In this document: positions 12,972 through 19,127 of the stretch, one piece after another
Layout of the letters: each line of letters starts with the position of its first letter
Numbering within the stretch: position 1 is the stretch's first letter
From: Sphingomonas sp.
GTDB taxonomy: Bacteria > Pseudomonadota > Alphaproteobacteria > Sphingomonadales > Sphingomonadaceae
DNA length: 64,000 nt
Reading direction: 5' to 3'
Assembly: GCA_021732465.1 (NCBI GenBank)
Contig: JAKFUX010000011.1
Location: forward strand, 9,374-73,373
The notes under the pieces: generated by a model
What the model saw: the letters and a program-made list of their open reading frames with translations, nothing else
What the model was told of the DNA's origin: nothing
Databases searched by the model: none
Translations under genes and position numbers: made by a program

Positions 12972-14735
12972 CTATCGTATCCACCACAGCCGAAGCGGAG
13001 ACTTGGTGGGCAATGCCACCGGCTCCAGCCAGTCGGGCGCTTCGCCTTTGGCCAGCTTTGCATAAAAGCCCTGTTTCGCCCGCACGGTATAAACGGTCGA
13101 TTCAGCCATGTTGGGGCAGGTGAGGAGCAGCGTTGCCCCGTGCCGCCGGGCAATCGCGCGGAATTGATCGGCTGAACCGGTAAACGCATGCTGCACATCC
13201 AAAATCGCATCGCCATTACGGTGATACGGCCCGGCCACAGCGGAATGATGGGTGAGGGTAATCAGCCTTGGCCCCAGATCGACAAAGGTGAAAATCGTCT
13301 GTGCGGGAAGCCGGTTGAGCACGCCCAGCACCGGAATCGTCGGGCAACTGGCCCCCGCCCGGTTAACGGCCTTTGTGCGCAGGGTTGGCTTGTCGGGTGC
13401 GACATATTTCACCGCAAAGCCAACAAATACGCCAGAAATGATGATGAAGGACGCAACGGTGCCAAATACGCGCACCAGCATGGAACGATGTCCCAGGCAC
13501 CACGGGAACACGATCCACCCCAGCGCCACCGCACCCGGCACGGCCAGCAATTGCGCCGCCGCGCCCGCGCGCACCTGCCACAGCATCAGGCCCCCTGCCA
13601 GCAGCGCGAACAACAGCACGGCGGACCATGGCACGAAACGGTCGCTCCGCCGCGCGCGCCACGTGGCGATTATCGCCCCGATCACCCCGATGATTGGCAA
13701 TGCCGCTACGGGCAGCGCGTTGCGCCAGGGATGGTCATAGATCGGTTTGGCTTCGCGGACATTGTTCAGCCAATTGCGCGCCAGTTCGGGCGAAACCTGT
13801 TCCGGTCGCCCCACGCATTGCGGAAACACCAGCGCAAAGGCGGTGATGATCGCGATCCCTGCTGCCGCTGCCAGCGCCAGTCGGATGGGACGTCCATCAG
13901 GATTGATCCGCGCCAGCATGAACAACAGCGTCCCCGCTTCGATCATCACGCTCAGCCATACCGGGGTTAGCGCGTCACAGCGCAGCACCGCATTGGCACT
14001 TGATGCGAACAGCACATAGCCAACCGCGCTGCACCCCGCGAGCGCCAGCCCATATACTGACAGCCGGTCACTCTCCCCCCGGTCCCACACCCAGCGAAGT
14101 GCCGTGATCGCACCTGCGCCTGCCGCATAGGGCAGCATTTCCAGCCCGATGCTAAGCGACACGGCGCTCACCAGCCCAACCACGATGCCACCGCGCCGTT
14201 GGCGTTGGTCGGCCAGCCCGGCCACCGTGATGCTCAGGCAGGCAAGCTGCCACCCGTGATGATCGATCCGTTCCGGCATGAACATCAGCATCGTCGCGGT
14301 GCACAGCAGCAGGAAAATCAGCGCCAGCGGCCAGGCAACGGGGCTCACCAGCCGCCGAACGGTGAAGGCAAGGCCGGCCATCGTCACCGAAAGCGGCAAT
14401 AGCGGTGCGATGCCGCAGGCCAGCTTTTCGGCCATCACGGTGCCGACAAACGGCTTGAAGACCAAAATCAGCGCCGCAATCGGCAAATCGACGATCCGGC
14501 TCCAGTGGATGTCGAAACCGGCAGGCGGATTGAGCCGGTATTGCCGCAAATCATACCAACCCTGCCCGCCGAGCAGCGCGCGTACCTGCATCAGGCGCAT
14601 ATTGTCGTCTGTGTCGCTCAGCGATAGCCACCAGATGCTGGGCCAGCGCTGCCAGATGATGCACATCGCGATCAATGCCCACGCCACCAGCGTCAGGCTA
14701 AGCCAGTTTTTCTGCAGCTCGTGCCCGAATGGCAT
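12972..14735 (-). CDS. Polytopic GT-C glycosyltransferase, STT3/PglB/AglB-like architecture
   Basis: About 13 TM plus a C-terminal soluble domain; motifs DTDDNMR, P.G.DIHW, IDHH, NVREAKP, FVDLG..AVAGPYH; start at MPFGHE chosen over the 15077 ORF start. Confidence 0.72.
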   Translation of the reverse strand: MPFGHELQKNWLSLTLVAWALIAMCIIWQRWPSIWWLSLSDTDDNMRLMQVRALLGGQGWYDLRQYRLNPPAGFDIHWSRIVDLPIAALILVFKPFVGTVMAEKLACGIAPLLPLSVTMAGLAFTVRRLVSPVAWPLALIFLLLCTATMLMFMPERIDHHGWQLACLSITVAGLADQRQRRGGIVVGLVSAVSLSIGLEMLPYAAGAGAITALRWVWDRGESDRLSVYGLALAGCSAVGYVLFASSANAVLRCDALTPVWLSVMIEAGTLLFMLARINPDGRPIRLALAAAAGIAIITAFALVFPQCVGRPEQVSPELARNWLNNVREAKPIYDHPWRNALPVAALPIIGVIGAIIATWRARRSDRFVPWSAVLLFALLAGGLMLWQVRAGAAAQLLAVPGAVALGWIVFPWCLGHRSMLVRVFGTVASFIIISGVFVGFAVKYVAPDKPTLRTKAVNRAGASCPTIPVLGVLNRLPAQTIFTFVDLGPRLITLTHHSAVAGPYHRNGDAILDVQHAFTGSADQFRAIARRHGATLLLTCPNMAESTVYTVRAKQGFYAKLAKGEAPDWLEPVALPTKSPLRLWWIR

Positions 14736-14819
14736 CTGACGGTTGTTGGTGTCGTTCAAAGAAGCTTCCCTCGCCAGCCTCTGCGCTCTAGTGCGGCCTC
14801 CACAAAGGGCAAGCGGCAC

Positions 14820-15272
14820 GTGAAAACTCTGCATCATCTTGGCAATCAGTTCGGCGATCGGCTGGGTGTGTTGGTTGGCGGGCGCGATGTGGCGGATCAG
14901 TTGATGCGTTTTGCGGTGGCGGGCGGACTGTCGACGATCATTTATTCGGCGGTGTACCTGCCGCTGACGGGCACCGTGTTTCCCGGATCGCGGGCCGTAT
15001 ATGCGGTGCCTTTCGCCTTTGCCGTTGCTGTCACCGCGGGGTATTTCCTGCACAGCCGGTGGAGCTTCAAGGGACACGGCAAGCGCGAAGCTGGCGGTTT
15101 GCAGCAGCTGAAGTTTGTCGCGGTGCAGGCATCCGGTGTCGGGCTGAACGCGCTGATCACGTGGACAGGCACGGCGGTGCTTGGCTATCCGGCGTGGGTG
15201 CCGTTGTTACCAGCGGTCGCGGTAGCGACGATCTTTACCTTCATCCTCAATCGCTGGCTGGTATTTTCGTGA
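14820..15272 (+). CDS. gtrA: GtrA-family lipid-linked sugar flippase
   Basis: RFAVAGG, YFLHSRWSF, FILNRWLVF, 4 TM; GTG at 14820. Confidence 0.85.
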   Translation: MKTLHHLGNQFGDRLGVLVGGRDVADQLMRFAVAGGLSTIIYSAVYLPLTGTVFPGSRAVYAVPFAFAVAVTAGYFLHSRWSFKGHGKREAGGLQQLKFVAVQASGVGLNALITWTGTAVLGYPAWVPLLPAVAVATIFTFILNRWLVFS

Positions 15273-15284
15273 TGGCACAACGGC

Positions 15285-16016
15285 ATGGATAGAATCGTTT
15301 ACGACCGGATGGCGGCGCATGATTCCACCCATTGGTGGTACCGCGCGCGGCGAGAGATTCTGTTCGATTATCTGACGCGAGAGGCTGCTTTGCCCCGGGA
15401 TGCGCGCATCCTGGAGATTGGCTGCGGCACCGGGCACAACCTGCCGATGCTGGCGCGATTTGGCAGTGTTGAGGCCATTGAAATTGATCCGGTTGCGCGC
15501 GGCATCGCCAGCGAGCGGCTCGGCAAGCCGGTGAGCGCTGCCCCCTTGCCTGAACTGCCGGGCATTGAACGTGGCGCTTATGATCTGATCGCCGTGCTTG
15601 ATGTAGTGGAGCATATTGAGGACGATGTCGCGGCGTTGAAGGCGATGCGGGATTGCCTGAAACCCGGCGGCAAAATTCTCATCACCGTGCCCGCGCACCA
15701 GTGGATGTGGAGCGCCCATGATGTCGTGAACCACCACCACCGCCGTTATTCAAAGGCCAGCCTGGGCCGCGCAATTTCAGCGGCGGGGCTGGGGCATAAT
15801 GGCCTGCGCTATTTCAATTCGCTGCTGTTCCCGCTGGCCGCCGCTGCACGGGTGGCAGGGCGGATGACGGGGCGGGACGACAGCGATGATTCGCCGCCGC
15901 CCAAAGCATTGAATACGCTGTTTGAGACAATTTTCGGCTGGGAACGGCATCTGGTTGGCCGCATGCCGCTGCCGCCCGGCGTGTCGATTGTCACGCTGGC
16001 AGGGTCGGGAACGTAG
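15285..16016 (+). CDS. Class I SAM-dependent methyltransferase associated with Gtr-type loci
   Basis: HWWYRARR, ILEIGCGTG, DVVEHIEDD, TVPA..WSAHD..HHRRY. Confidence 0.9.
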   Translation: MDRIVYDRMAAHDSTHWWYRARREILFDYLTREAALPRDARILEIGCGTGHNLPMLARFGSVEAIEIDPVARGIASERLGKPVSAAPLPELPGIERGAYDLIAVLDVVEHIEDDVAALKAMRDCLKPGGKILITVPAHQWMWSAHDVVNHHHRRYSKASLGRAISAAGLGHNGLRYFNSLLFPLAAAARVAGRMTGRDDSDDSPPPKALNTLFETIFGWERHLVGRMPLPPGVSIVTLAGSGT

Positions 16017-16036
16017 CGTAGGATCGCATTACTTCA

Positions 16037-16121
16037 CCCCGCGCGTCCTGATCGCAGTTGAGGAGCGTGCCGCAGACGAATCGTGAGCGGCATGTTTCTC
16101 GACTGCGCTCGAAACGAACGG
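16037..16121. repeat. Degenerate REP-like palindromic repeat
   Basis: Right arm TTCTCGACTGCGCTCGAAACGAACGG resembles the 8519 repeat family; left arm decayed. Confidence 0.5.
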
Positions 16122-16143
16122 ATTTGCGTGCGTTAAACTAATG

Positions 16144-17190
16144 TCATTCCGGCTTGGCGCGTGGTTTGCGCGCGCGCGGTGCGGGCGTGGCGGCAGGCAA
16201 TGCAGGCACCACCGCAGGCGCTTCGGCCTGATAGCCCAAAGTCGCCTTGCCGCCGATTGGCCCGGCAACATCGGCGACCAGATAGAGCGGCCGCCGTTTC
16301 GATTCGACATATAGCCGCCCGAGATATTCGCCAATCATTCCCAGCACGAACATCTGCACCGCGCCCAGCAGGACGACCACCAGCATCGTCGATGTCCAGC
16401 CCTGTACGGCGCTGCCGGTGAAAAACCCGATTGCGATATACACAAATAGCAGCAGCGACGCCCCGGTCAGCGCCAAGCCAAAATGGCTGGCAAAGCGCAA
16501 GGGGGCGGTGGAAAAGCCGGTCATGGCATCCAGCGCAAACCGAATCATCTTGGCCAGCGGATATTTGGTTTCACCGGCATGGCGTTCTGCGCGGTCGTAC
16601 AAAAACGGCACCTGACGAAACCCGATCCATGCCACCATCCCGCGAATGAAGCGTGCCTGTTCGGGCAGCGACAGAAATGCATCCAGCGCGCGCCTGCTCA
16701 TCAGCCGGAAATCGCCGGTATCAAGCGGAATGGGCGTATCGGTGACGCGGTCGAGCACGCGGTAAAACAGGGCGGCGGTCAGCTTTTTGAACAGCGTTTC
16801 ACCCTCACGCTTGCGACGCACGGCATAGACGACATCGGCTTGCTCGGCGGCCATCGTCGCGCGCATATCGGCGAGCAGTTCCGGCGGATCCTGCAGATCG
16901 GCATCGATAATCATGATCTGCGCGCCGCAGCACAGATCAAGCCCCGCCGTCAGCGCCAGTTGGTGGCCGTGATTGCGCGACAGGTTGATGGCGACCAGAT
17001 GGGGATCGCTTGCGGCCAGCCGCTGCATGACGGGCCAGCTATCATCGCGCGACCCATCATTGACGAACACAATCTCATAGTCGTCGCCAACCGCAGCCCG
17101 GGCTGCGCCCGATACGCGGGTGTGGAGAATATCAAGACAGGCGGCTTCGTTGTAACAGGGCACAACGATGGAAAGGGCGGGGCGATGCAT
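16144..17190 (-). CDS. gtrB: GT2 polyprenol-phosphate glycosyltransferase (GtrB/ArnC-like)
   Basis: VVPCYNE, VNDGSRD, SRNHGHQ, DADLQDPP, TGDFRL, 2 C-terminal TM, IGEYLGR. Confidence 0.88.
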   Translation of the reverse strand: MHRPALSIVVPCYNEAACLDILHTRVSGAARAAVGDDYEIVFVNDGSRDDSWPVMQRLAASDPHLVAINLSRNHGHQLALTAGLDLCCGAQIMIIDADLQDPPELLADMRATMAAEQADVVYAVRRKREGETLFKKLTAALFYRVLDRVTDTPIPLDTGDFRLMSRRALDAFLSLPEQARFIRGMVAWIGFRQVPFLYDRAERHAGETKYPLAKMIRFALDAMTGFSTAPLRFASHFGLALTGASLLLFVYIAIGFFTGSAVQGWTSTMLVVVLLGAVQMFVLGMIGEYLGRLYVESKRRPLYLVADVAGPIGGKATLGYQAEAPAVVPALPAATPAPRARKPRAKPE

Positions 17191-17255: not shown

Positions 17256-19061
17256 TCAGCCCTTGGCGGCCTTTGCGCGGGCCTCCACCAGCCGCTCCAG
17301 GATCGTCAGTGGCACGGCGCCATCGCGCAGCACCTCATGAAACGCGCGCAGATCGAACTTGTCGCCCAGGATGCGCTTGGCATTGTCCCGCGCCCGCAGC
17401 CAGCTGATATGGCCCAGTTTATAGCTGCATGCCTGGCCCGCTTGCGTGCAATAACGCTCAATTTCGCGCTGCGATCTGGGCCGTGCAAAGCCAACCGTCT
17501 CCACGAAATAATCGGTCGCTTGTTCGCGCGTCCAGCGTTTGGCGTGAAGGCCGGTATCGGCGACCAATCGCGCGGCGCGGAACAGGAAACTTTGCAGATA
17601 GCCTGCCCGCTCAATCGCGCTGGCATAGCCGCCCAGTTCATCGGCGACCTGCTCTGCATAGAGCGCCCAGCCTTCCGAATAGGCGCTGAAGCCCGACAAC
17701 CGGCGGAGCAGCGGCGAATTGAGCTTTTGCACGATGCTGAGCTGCAGGTGATGCCCCGGCACACCTTCGTGATAGCTGAGAGAGGGCAGGGTGTATTTCG
17801 GCCAGTCGCCCACACTTTTCAGGTTGATAAAATAGATCGCCGGGCGTTTTCCGTCGAGCGAGGCGCGGCGATAATAGCCGTTCGACGCGCCGTCCTGGAT
17901 TTCCACGGGCACGGCGCGAATATCGAGCGGTTCGGCGGGCGGGTTCAGGAAAGCCTTGCCCAGCCGGGCCTGCATGGCCGCCACGCCAACGTTCAGCCCG
18001 GCGAGCAACTCAGCGCGGCCTTCGGCGGTGTCGGCATAAAGCTGTGCCGGCATTTCATTGAGCGCGGTCAGGCGGGCACCAACGCTTCCCTTGGTCAGCC
18101 CCTGCGCCCTCAGGATCGCATCAAGTTCAGCGGTCAACGCGGCAACCTGTTCTTGGCCGATCTTGTGCACTTCATCGGGTGTGAAGTTGGTGGTGGTCGC
18201 CGCCTTCAGCGCATCGGCATAGATCGCTTCGCCATCCGGCAGCGCCCATAGCCCTGCTTCCTTGCGGCGCGGCAGCGATTCGACGAGCGCAATCTGCCGG
18301 TCAAGCGCGGGGTAAACCTGTGCCTCAATGATGGCGGCGGCTTTTGTGCCCCAATCCCCCGCCAACCCGGCCGCCTTGGCGCGCGTGGCGAGTGAATTGA
18401 CCATCGAGCTTGCCGCCGCTGGCTTGCCACGCAGCGCCTTTAGCTGACCAATCGTCAGATCAAGGGAGAAATCGGGCGCGACAAAGCCGCGTGCCGCCTC
18501 GTCCCGCTGGACCGCGCTGTCCTGATCAAGCGCTGTGGCAAAGGCGGAAAGCCTGGAGCAATAGGCTTCGGCATCGGCCGTCGTCTGGATTGTGTGCGCC
18601 GAATTCAGGAAATCGGGGATGGAAAAATACGCCCCGCCCTGCTGAAAGATCCGGTAAGGGCGGATCGTGCTGCCAATGCCGAATTTGTCGGGACCGACGA
18701 TGCCGCTGCGCAGCGAATACAGCACAACCTCGCGGTCCAGCTTGCTCGTTTCGGAAAGCCCGGCGGCGTCGACCGCTTCCACACGGGCAATGGCTTTTTT
18801 GGCGCGGGCAAGATCAGTGGCGCGCGATGCGAGGGAGCGATCGCCAAGCTGTGATTTTGCAGCAGCCCTTTTGCCATTGTCGAGGCCAAGCTGGGTTACG
18901 CTTTCGGGCGAATCGTCAAGATTTTCCTGAAAGATCGCCTCAAGCAGTGCGTTCAGCGCTGCATCGCCCGCACCCGGCTGGCCTGCCGCCTTCAGCGCAC
19001 CGGGCGTCAGCGCCAGCGCCGTCACAGCGCCAGTCGATGAAAGAAACTGGCGGCGATCCAT
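17256..19061 (-). CDS. DUF885-family putative metallopeptidase, Tat-exported
   Basis: MDRRQFL twin-Arg signal; HEGVPGHHLQ, EGWALYAE, RAARLVADTGLH, EIERY. Confidence 0.9.
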   Translation of the reverse strand: MDRRQFLSSTGAVTALALTPGALKAAGQPGAGDAALNALLEAIFQENLDDSPESVTQLGLDNGKRAAAKSQLGDRSLASRATDLARAKKAIARVEAVDAAGLSETSKLDREVVLYSLRSGIVGPDKFGIGSTIRPYRIFQQGGAYFSIPDFLNSAHTIQTTADAEAYCSRLSAFATALDQDSAVQRDEAARGFVAPDFSLDLTIGQLKALRGKPAAASSMVNSLATRAKAAGLAGDWGTKAAAIIEAQVYPALDRQIALVESLPRRKEAGLWALPDGEAIYADALKAATTTNFTPDEVHKIGQEQVAALTAELDAILRAQGLTKGSVGARLTALNEMPAQLYADTAEGRAELLAGLNVGVAAMQARLGKAFLNPPAEPLDIRAVPVEIQDGASNGYYRRASLDGKRPAIYFINLKSVGDWPKYTLPSLSYHEGVPGHHLQLSIVQKLNSPLLRRLSGFSAYSEGWALYAEQVADELGGYASAIERAGYLQSFLFRAARLVADTGLHAKRWTREQATDYFVETVGFARPRSQREIERYCTQAGQACSYKLGHISWLRARDNAKRILGDKFDLRAFHEVLRDGAVPLTILERLVEARAKAAKG

Positions 19062-19127
19062 GGCAATATCCTTAGCGCGGGTGGGTTTTGAACCGGTATA
19101 ACCTAGCCACACGGCGCGCGCTGGCAA

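Follow-up and report, generated by a model that had tools for sequence, protein, structure and literature searches.

In a 64,000-nucleotide stretch of a Sphingomonas sp. genome (contig JAKFUX010000011.1; hereafter the window) we found four neighbouring genes, between positions 12972 and 17190, that in our judgement form a periplasmic glycosylation module of the three-component Gtr type, with a divergent transferase of the oligosaccharyltransferase (OST) superfamily and an additional methyltransferase; we put the probability of this reading at about three in four. The genes encode a polytopic glycosyltransferase of the GT-C type, a small membrane protein of the GtrA family, a class I S-adenosylmethionine (SAM)-dependent methyltransferase and a GT2 glycosyltransferase of the GtrB/ArnC type (Table 1). 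All four had been named in an earlier sequence-only reading of the window and were confirmed in the open reading frames (ORFs) 12972-15077(-), 14721-15272(+), 15285-16016(+) and 16144-17190(-). The interpretation given in that reading is supported to the extent that computation can probe it, and of the outcomes that it had named as refuting, none was seen wherever a check could be made. In the pathway that we propose, the GtrB-like GT2 enzyme would transfer one sugar from a nucleotide sugar to undecaprenyl phosphate (Und-P) at the cytoplasmic face of the membrane, where the cytoplasmic methyltransferase, in Sphingomonadaceae only, may modify the lipid-linked sugar. GtrA would then assist the Und-P-sugar across the membrane, and the GT-C protein, which within the STT3/AglB/PglB superfamily has diverged very far, would place the sugar on an acceptor at the periplasmic side.

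Predicted fold and relationship to oligosaccharyltransferases

The GT-C protein comprises about 13 transmembrane (TM) helices and a C-terminal periplasmic domain. The AlphaFold2 model, for which an alignment of 117 full-length family members was used as input (A1, 28-81% identity to the query), reached a predicted local distance difference test score (pLDDT) of 96.8 and a predicted template modelling score (pTM) of 0.95, with 568 of the 587 residues at pLDDT ≥90. In an exhaustive comparison of the model with 48,161 representatives of the PDB (VIA-align), the best match was AglB of Archaeoglobus fulgidus (3waj, Z 27.5, 506 aligned residues, root-mean-square deviation 3.3 Å), ahead of human STT3B (6s7t, Z 23.9, 538 aligned residues), the C-mannosyltransferase DPY19 (7zlg, Z 22.0, 544 residues), PglB (5ogl, Z 19.8, 502 residues) and ArnT (5f15, Z 17.7, 445 residues), with PMT, ALG and Aft/Emb enzymes at lower ranks. 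Foldseek gave the same ranking (AglB E 3.9e-13), and its best 21 matches were all OSTs or DPY19. Identity to AglB in these alignments is 13-16%. C-terminal residues 459-587 on their own matched the globular domains of AglB-S2 (3vu0, Z 10.2) and PglB (3aag, Z 9.1). As modelled, the protein has an OST-type GT-C fold that includes the OST-specific core domain and goes beyond a generic GT-C fold, in agreement with the GT-C/STT3-like fold suggested in the sequence-only reading.

At the sequence level the evidence for a relationship to OSTs appears weak but consistent. The window protein scores only 9.7 bits against TIGR04154, and phmmer found nothing at E ≤ 10 among the PDB sequences. The family profile matched the sequence of the AglB C-terminal domain (3vgp) with an E-value of 0.0065 and placed its segment plDlGP on WWDYG. 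The Pfam STT3 model (PF02516) reached its gathering score in one relative (24.6 vs 24.5 bits) and 19.2 bits in another, with alignments that span TM2-TM7, the region holding the second catalytic motif, and AglB_core-like PF22627 matched a third relative with E 0.01. Comparison of the family with six canonical proteobacterial STT3-like proteins (alignment A2) by hhalign gave E 0.0038; in the alignment R389 stands opposite R349, the invariant Arg of these proteins, and D486 opposite the WWD Asp. A hidden Markov model (HMM) built from the same six proteins did not significantly detect the GT-C family. Protein-language-model neighbours with an assigned Pfam family were STT3, AglB_core-like and Dpy19 clusters.

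The six canonical STT3/PglB-like genes come from sampled Pseudomonadota outside the window's class (L104, L106, L107, L109, L110 and L112). Their products carry DGY, DTD and I-x-E, with WWD-x-G in five of the six (e.g. WWDFG in L106) and LWD-A-G in L109, and 13 of 401 genomes exceed the Pfam STT3 cut-off. Bacterial OSTs are usually described as delta/epsilon-proteobacterial. Among the structural neighbours of the model in the ESM Atlas clusters, Verrucomicrobiota proteins of 834-867 aa (TM-score 0.80-0.82) bear tetratricopeptide (TPR) repeats; TPR fusions are also known from TMTC-type protein O-mannosyltransferases and would suit a protein acceptor. Long ORFs and a relative of 952 aa (P0255) were searched for natural fusions of the GT-C protein to partner domains, and no additional Pfam domain was found.

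Conserved motifs and the putative metal site

Conservation was read from alignment A1. Fully conserved in the 117 sequences are D43, R47, G57, H77, W78, R80, P111, H159, E199, C253, D254, C307, H505 and R506; D44, D158, H160, E328 and R389 are conserved to 99%, and D41 and D486 to 91%. Two Cys pairs are present, C253/C307 at 100% and C464 (93%) with C540 (86%). The OST topology with 13 TM helices puts all invariant polar residues and both Cys pairs in periplasmic loops, which is in keeping with an active site in the periplasm and with disulfide bonds. Judged from this alignment the motifs quoted in the sequence-only reading are more than chance, since they are invariant or nearly so.

That reading had stated that the catalytic OST motifs occur in the correct order and topology, and this was borne out: the acidic residues of the first external loop (EL1), the Asp-His-His and the [V/I]-x-E are 91-100% conserved and lie in the right loops. 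The second motif is of the AglB type as claimed, Asp-His-His being found in A. fulgidus AglB too (PMC8342417). All six quoted motifs were found in place, with minor slips at two ends of the coordinates: those given for DTDDNMR and IDHH were exact; NVREAKP is present, with the interval of 13743-13766 being 3 nt too long at its end, and TIFTFVDLG is present as well, with 13272-13286 covering only part of it.

In A. fulgidus AglB the first DXD motif supplies the metal ligand Asp47 and the second motif the ligands Asp161 and His163, and Glu360 of TIXE makes contact through water (PMC8342417). The GT-C motifs very probably coincide in space with these active-site motifs in the model, because the structural alignment begins at model residue 13, equivalent to AglB residue 15, and because D43 comes after TM1, D158-H159-H160 has almost the residue number that it has in AglB, and [V/I]326-x-E328 is in the long loop. 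Catalysis would then probably be AglB-like: D43, D158 and H160 would hold a divalent metal, the mobile EL5 loop would contribute E328, and R389 would lie close to the phosphate of the lipid.

The acceptor site

In AglB the motifs WWDYG and DK/MI make the pocket for the Ser/Thr of the sequon, and TIXE hydrogen-bonds the sequon backbone too (PMC8342417). In the window protein the C-terminal domain holds D486-L-G-P in place of WWDYG, together with H497, H505-R506 and the Cys pair C464/C540. Across the family the segment aligned to WWDYG has the consensus A-P-L-D-L-G-P, and Trp is absent from both positions in 117 of 117 relatives. What is left of the motif are the Asp (91%) and the Gly (70%); TIXE, which binds the backbone, keeps its [I/V]-x-E core, and H497, H505 and R506 are new invariant residues. 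The claim that sequon recognition has been lost was thus partly accurate, correct for both Trp and not for the Asp, the Gly and the [V/I]-x-E core. The alignment suggests that the acceptor side is changed and not erased, so that "rewritten" is a fair description and "lost peptide recognition" goes too far. Because the Trp pair that binds the Ser/Thr is replaced, the acceptor would not be the classical N-x-S/T sequon.

We consider it about equally likely that the acceptor is a protein site of a different kind or a glycolipid or glycan of the envelope, for example the glycosphingolipid of Sphingomonas. For a protein speak the nearest structural relatives, which are all protein glycosyltransferases, the retention of the peptide-binding domain and the TIXE core, the TPR repeats on the Verrucomicrobiota neighbours, and the spread of the family over bacteria with very different envelope lipids. 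For a glycolipid or glycan speak the paralogues inside one genome and the targets of most Gtr-type systems in bacteria, namely O-antigen, teichoic acids, lipid A or arabinogalactan; moreover, several glycosyltransferases of the glycosphingolipid glycans of Sphingomonadales remain unidentified (PMC13028669). In streptococci, pairs of GtrB and a GT-C enzyme glycosylate proteins (PMC12041528), so that protein and glycan acceptors each have a precedent.

Gene layout of the locus

The GT-C gene encodes a product of 587 aa if translation starts at ATG 14735, as in the sequence-only reading, or of 595 aa from TTG 14759, eight codons upstream. TTG 14759 is the probable start, because GGGAAG is found 6 nt upstream and most of the homologues have 595 aa. 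Upstream the gtrA ORF is open for a further 61 codons, to a GTG that overlaps the divergent GT-C gene at its start; the Pfam domain sets in at ATG 14904, and this codon was taken as the gene start. gtrA and the methyltransferase gene, 12 nt apart, make up a two-gene operon that is divergent from the GT-C gene and convergent with the GT2 gene. No convincing sigma-70 consensus was found in the intergenic region 14760-14903, and a promoter and terminator scan over the four-gene cluster stayed at background level.

Table 1. Features of the proposed glycosylation locus and of related loci. Positions without prefix refer to the window; own genome, G000.
Feature	Position	Strand	Basis or remark
AglB/STT3-like GT-C glycosyltransferase gene, P0001	12972..14759	-	ORF, AlphaFold2 model, Foldseek, structural comparison
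C-terminal periplasmic globular domain, residues ~452-587, homologous to AglB/PglB core	12975..13382	-	3vu0, 3aag, 3vgp, PF22627
AVAGPYH, residues 499-505	13221-13241	-	Motif script
TIFTFVDLG, residues 480-488	13272-13298	-	Motif script
R389, periplasmic junction of two late TM helices, candidate phosphate-binding Arg	13569..13571	-	99% conserved
NVREAKP, residues 325-331	13743-13763	-	Motif script
V326-R327-E328 in long loop 304-336 (EL5), counterpart of [I/V]-x-E core of TIXE/SVSE	13752..13760	-	V/I 99%, E 99%
D158-H159-H160, counterpart of second DXD	14256..14264	-	99/100/99% conserved
IDHH, residues 157-160	14256-14267	-	Motif script
H77-W78-S79-R80 in EL1	14496..14507	-	H, W, R 100%, S 92%
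PPAGFDIHW, residues 70-78	14502-14528	-	Motif script
DTDDNMR, residues 41-47, EL1 acidic motif (D41, D43, D44, R47), counterpart of first OST DXD	14595..14615	-	Just after TM1 in model
Intergenic region, divergent, between GT-C gene and gtrA-methyltransferase operon	14760..14903	.	Gene coordinates
gtrA, GtrA-family small membrane protein, 122 aa, P0002	14904..15272	+	PF04138 1.4e-19, full length
Class I SAM-dependent methyltransferase, 243 aa, P0003	15285..16016	+	Methyltransf_23 6.5e-21
GtrB/ArnC-type GT2 polyprenyl-phosphate glycosyltransferase, 348 aa, P0004, C-terminal TM helices	16144..17190	-	PF00535 2.1e-29
Second GT-C paralogue, own genome	G000 contig C58:3-290 = L082:3-290	-	Cut by contig end, beside argG (argininosuccinate synthase)
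Second GtrB-like GT2, own genome	G000 contig C10:62529-63536 = L142:6030-7037	-	Between tig (trigger factor) and clpP/clpX
GT2 and PF04138 GtrA/DPMS TM domain in one frame, own genome	G000 contig C18:43130-44239	-	
FAD oxidoreductase neighbours of distant GT-C homologues	L091:8841-10415, L128:8825-10423, L088:4600-6336, L119:11197-12693, L122:11927-13429		

The genes on either side are housekeeping genes, with Vut_1, acetylglutamate kinase, FolD and MarC on one side and DUF885 and RelA/SpoT on the other, and the GC content is level over the whole region; the locus is neither a genomic island nor a prophage. The DUF885 gene (17256-19127, minus strand) encodes a product with a twin-arginine translocation (TAT) signal. 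It lies on the strand of gtrB, with 65 nt between its end and the downstream gtrB start, and may be co-transcribed with gtrB. DUF885 was found near the cluster in just 11 of 80 Sphingomonas loci.

Conservation of the gene neighbourhood

In Sphingomonadaceae 80 loci were examined with purpose-built HMMs, and counts were made on the 69 with enough upstream DNA. The GT-C gene is accompanied by GtrA in 68 of these, by the methyltransferase in 66 and by the GT2 gene in 55. Two gene orders occur, either that of the window or a single gtrA-GT2-methyltransferase operon divergent from the GT-C gene, and this rearrangement argues for a functional connection over mere synteny. For a wider view 40 loci outside the Sphingomonadaceae were surveyed. 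Clustering of the neighbouring genes, with a Pfam check, gave GT2 as the most recurrent neighbour family, followed by GtrA. With the HMMs a GT2 gene was found within 3 kb in 17 of the 40 loci and a GtrA gene in 14, where chance would give about 2% and 0.3%, respectively, as estimated from the 7 GT2-HMM and 1 GtrA-HMM matches in the window's own 2.7-Mb genome. The linkage is therefore about 20- to 100-fold above expectation, and it is seen in many unrelated contexts and with differing gene orders. A tblastn search with the window's GtrA, methyltransferase and GtrB next to the distant homologues had found almost nothing, which reflects its limited sensitivity, as the HMMs then detected GT2 and GtrA.

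We conclude that GT-C, GT2 and GtrA form a recurrent functional unit, to which the methyltransferase is a Sphingomonadaceae addition. The expectation that all four genes would occur together elsewhere thus held in both arrangements of the Sphingomonadaceae and, for GtrA and GT2, next to distant homologues too; the methyltransferase was found in only 1 of the 40 loci outside that family. On the level of whole genomes a PF04138 gene is present in 26 of 37 genomes with the GT-C protein and in 83 of the 264 that lack it. As relatives are not independent, the counts serve for description only; they include one unpublished genome, G040, with GtrA but without the GT-C protein.

Five of the distant loci carry, next to the GT-C homologue, a flavin adenine dinucleotide (FAD) amine-oxidase/NAD_binding_8 oxidoreductase with a length of about 520 aa, which in three of them is followed by a GtrA gene. 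They may represent a variant of the module that uses an oxidised or rearranged sugar.

Partner proteins and the proposed lipid-linked donor

The GtrA protein, a putative Und-P-sugar flippase, matches PF04138 (GtrA_DPMS_TM) over model positions 1-117 of 117. The GT2 protein combines the Glycos_transf_2 domain with a hydrophobic C-terminal segment and aligns in full length with the NCBIfam models PgfS (247 bits) and ArnC (165 bits), in both cases under the equivalog cut-off; both models describe polyprenyl-phosphate glycosyltransferases. As the neighbours of the GT-C gene are GtrB and GtrA, with no glycan-assembly genes, the donor would be a monosaccharide on Und-P. DPY19 uses dolichyl-phosphate mannose (Dol-P-Man) and AglB binds dolichol monophosphate and is able to use a monophosphate-linked donor, so the OST fold can operate with donors of this kind. 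Dolichol phosphate is seen bound in the AglB structure 7E9S (PMC8342417).

The methyltransferase is 79-100% identical among the Sphingomonas matches listed. Its model (pLDDT 82.9) shows a generic class I fold, and the best Foldseek matches include the sugar O-methyltransferases AtmM and RebM, along with TleD and prenyl-diphosphate C-methyltransferases. Action on the lipid-linked sugar is plausible by analogy with AglP of Haloferax volcanii, a SAM methyltransferase that acts on a Dol-P-linked N-glycan.

Family distribution and paralogues

A library-wide HMMER search placed 4293 clusters (50% identity) in the GT-C family with a threshold of E ≤ 0.001 and 1273 with E ≤ 1e-30. Of 301 sampled alphaproteobacterial genomes 37 have a homologue, as have 14 of the 15 genomes from the family of the window; among the sampled genomes of other classes of Pseudomonadota only 4 have one. 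In NCBI and UniRef relatives bear the name "AcrB/AcrD/AcrF family protein", the mislabelling that the sequence-only reading had suspected. Our literature search found no paper that describes this family, an alphaproteobacterial OST-like family, or the cluster in work on Sphingomonas glycosphingolipids. New GT-C families are still being founded on single characterised members, as with GT136 (PMC11127046).

A second GT-C copy, either alone or accompanied by its own GtrA, is present in several Sphingomonas genomes. In the window's own genome the second paralogue, truncated at the contig end, retains LPDTDDVMRL and MHWSRLPD. The same genome has a second GtrB-like GT2 on contig C10, which scored 421 bits with an HMM of the GT2s that flank distant GT-C homologues, vs 314 bits for the GtrB of the cluster, and which may provide the second paralogue with its donor. 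The frame on contig C18 that joins GT2 and GtrA domains is probably a fused synthase-GtrA protein. The paralogues recall the Rhizobium transferases RgtA-D, which share one synthase, and may likewise depend on a single synthase.

Alternative explanations

Several observations weigh against the module as proposed. The relationship to OSTs is drawn mainly from predicted structure: the window protein has no Pfam match at E ≤ 1 and no usable NCBIfam match, and the hhalign probability to canonical STT3 proteins is just 8.8%. The fold of the methyltransferase does not reveal its substrate, and the link of this gene to the cluster is restricted to one lineage. Seven near-complete genomes with a GT-C homologue have no PF04138 gene, so that the partnership with GtrA is not universal. 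About half of the distant homologues have neither GT2 nor GtrA within 3 kb, and in Sphingomonas MarC, FolD and ArgB are syntenic around the cluster as well, so that the conservation of the neighbours could in part be general synteny. These last two points would agree with a GT-C protein that is independent of its neighbours, a stand-alone transferase for an envelope polymer which obtains its lipid-linked sugar from elsewhere, as would the second Sphingomonas paralogues that stand alone or with GtrA only; the tig-clpP GT2 and the GT2-GtrA fusion of the own genome are candidate sources of the donor. We nevertheless regard this as unlikely, because the linkage to GT2 and GtrA recurs in unrelated contexts far above expectation and because one of the arrangements in Sphingomonadaceae is a gtrA, GT2 and methyltransferase operon divergent from the GT-C gene.

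The same recurrent neighbours bear on the question of whether the protein could be a genuine OST that transfers an Und-P- or undecaprenyl diphosphate (Und-PP)-linked oligosaccharide en bloc to Asn in an altered sequon, with GtrA, GtrB and the methyltransferase decorating the glycan or serving another pathway. Every one of the nearest solved structures is an OST, and the protein retains the C-terminal core domain of OSTs, the first acidic motif, Asp-His-His, [V/I]-x-E and the Asp and Gly of WWDYG (PMC8342417). However, GT2 and GtrA are enzymes of monosaccharide carriers, no pgl or agl assembly genes, initiating phosphoglycosyltransferase or Wzx-type flippase lie nearby in the window, and none is recurrent in the 40 distant loci. 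With both Trp of WWDYG missing from every relative in addition, this explanation is in our opinion quite improbable. That the protein is not a glycosyltransferase at all, being either a transporter of the resistance-nodulation-division (RND)/AcrB type or a non-catalytic GT-C scaffold like PIG-U, is hardly credible. The database name points to the former, and PIG-U of the glycosylphosphatidylinositol (GPI) transamidase is among the weaker structural matches (Z 12.7-12.8), but the protein has no ACR_tran or other Pfam match, no RND structure appeared in the top 50 of either fold search, and a scaffold would not need the invariant acidic, His and Arg residues at the OST catalytic positions.

Within the proposed Gtr-type module, a narrower reading is possible, if rather doubtful as it stands: the GT-C protein may be an unrecognised bacterial protein glycosyltransferase, derived from AglB and widespread in Alphaproteobacteria, which transfers single sugars from Und-P, in Sphingomonas possibly methylated ones, to a site different from N-x-S/T on proteins of the periplasm or the membrane.

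Comparison with known systems

AglB of A. fulgidus (3WAJ, 7E9S; CAZy GT66) is the best structural match and shares with the window protein the arrangement of about 13 TM helices and a C-terminal globular core, a first acidic motif just after TM1, Asp-His-His at 158-160 (161-163 in AglB) and [I/V]-x-E in EL5. Unlike AglB, the window protein has the WW of WWDYG replaced, a C-terminal region of about 135 instead of about 400 residues and two conserved Cys pairs; it lacks a Pfam STT3 match at the low identity given above. Its neighbours are GtrB and GtrA and not agl glycan-assembly genes, from which the donor is probably a single sugar. PglB of Campylobacter (5OGL, 3RCE) likewise has the GT-C/STT3 fold with the C-terminal domain, acidic residues in EL1, EL2 and EL5, the conserved Arg and a periplasmic active site, but it has WWDYG and an MI motif, uses an Und-PP-heptasaccharide donor and belongs to a pgl cluster. 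DPY19 (7ZLG), also an STT3-like GT-C enzyme, moves a single sugar from Dol-P-Man to a protein site that is not a sequon and appears, by analogy, to be the nearest functional counterpart for an OST fold that works with a monosaccharide donor. In contrast to the window protein, with which it has no detectable sequence similarity, DPY19 is eukaryotic, recognises WxxW and forms a C-glycosidic bond.

Regarding the pathway, the locus resembles the Gtr systems (GtrA-GtrB-GtrC of Shigella and Salmonella, ArnC/ArnT, RgtE with RgtA-D of Rhizobium, and the streptococcal GtrB/PgtC2 and PgfS/PgfM1), in which a GT2 enzyme makes the Und-P-sugar, a small protein of the GtrA type is implicated in flipping, and a GT-C enzyme carries out the transfer outside the cytoplasm. 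The GT-C enzymes of those systems are ArnT/PMT_2-like or of other families, however, and none has been reported with the OST C-terminal core domain; the window locus, moreover, is chromosomal among housekeeping genes instead of in a prophage or O-antigen locus, and a methyltransferase is added. For the latter, H. volcanii AglP offers a parallel, as a cytoplasmic class I methyltransferase that is encoded with the AglB pathway and modifies the lipid-linked sugar before flipping, although the fold of the window methyltransferase is generic. The three-component architecture and the OST-type GT-C superfamily are known, whereas the two in combination, the change in the acceptor motif and the family as such have not been described.

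Implications

The GT-C proteins are a large family with no Pfam model and a misleading efflux-pump name. Thousands of database entries could be re-annotated, and the proteins are candidates for a new CAZy GT family and possibly for a glyco-engineering enzyme with a different acceptor specificity. An OST-fold enzyme in a GtrB/GtrA monosaccharide pathway would link the envelope transferases of the Gtr/ArnT type with the OSTs of N-glycosylation. Should the narrower reading as a protein glycosyltransferase be true, this would be a third kind of protein glycosylation by an OST fold beside N-glycosylation and the C-mannosylation by DPY19, and lipid-linked protein glycosylation by OST homologues would extend beyond the delta/epsilon-proteobacteria. 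Sphingomonas has no lipopolysaccharide (LPS), and the glycosyltransferases for the glycans of its glycosphingolipids are partly unidentified (PMC13028669); the locus points to a new envelope or protein modification in this genus.

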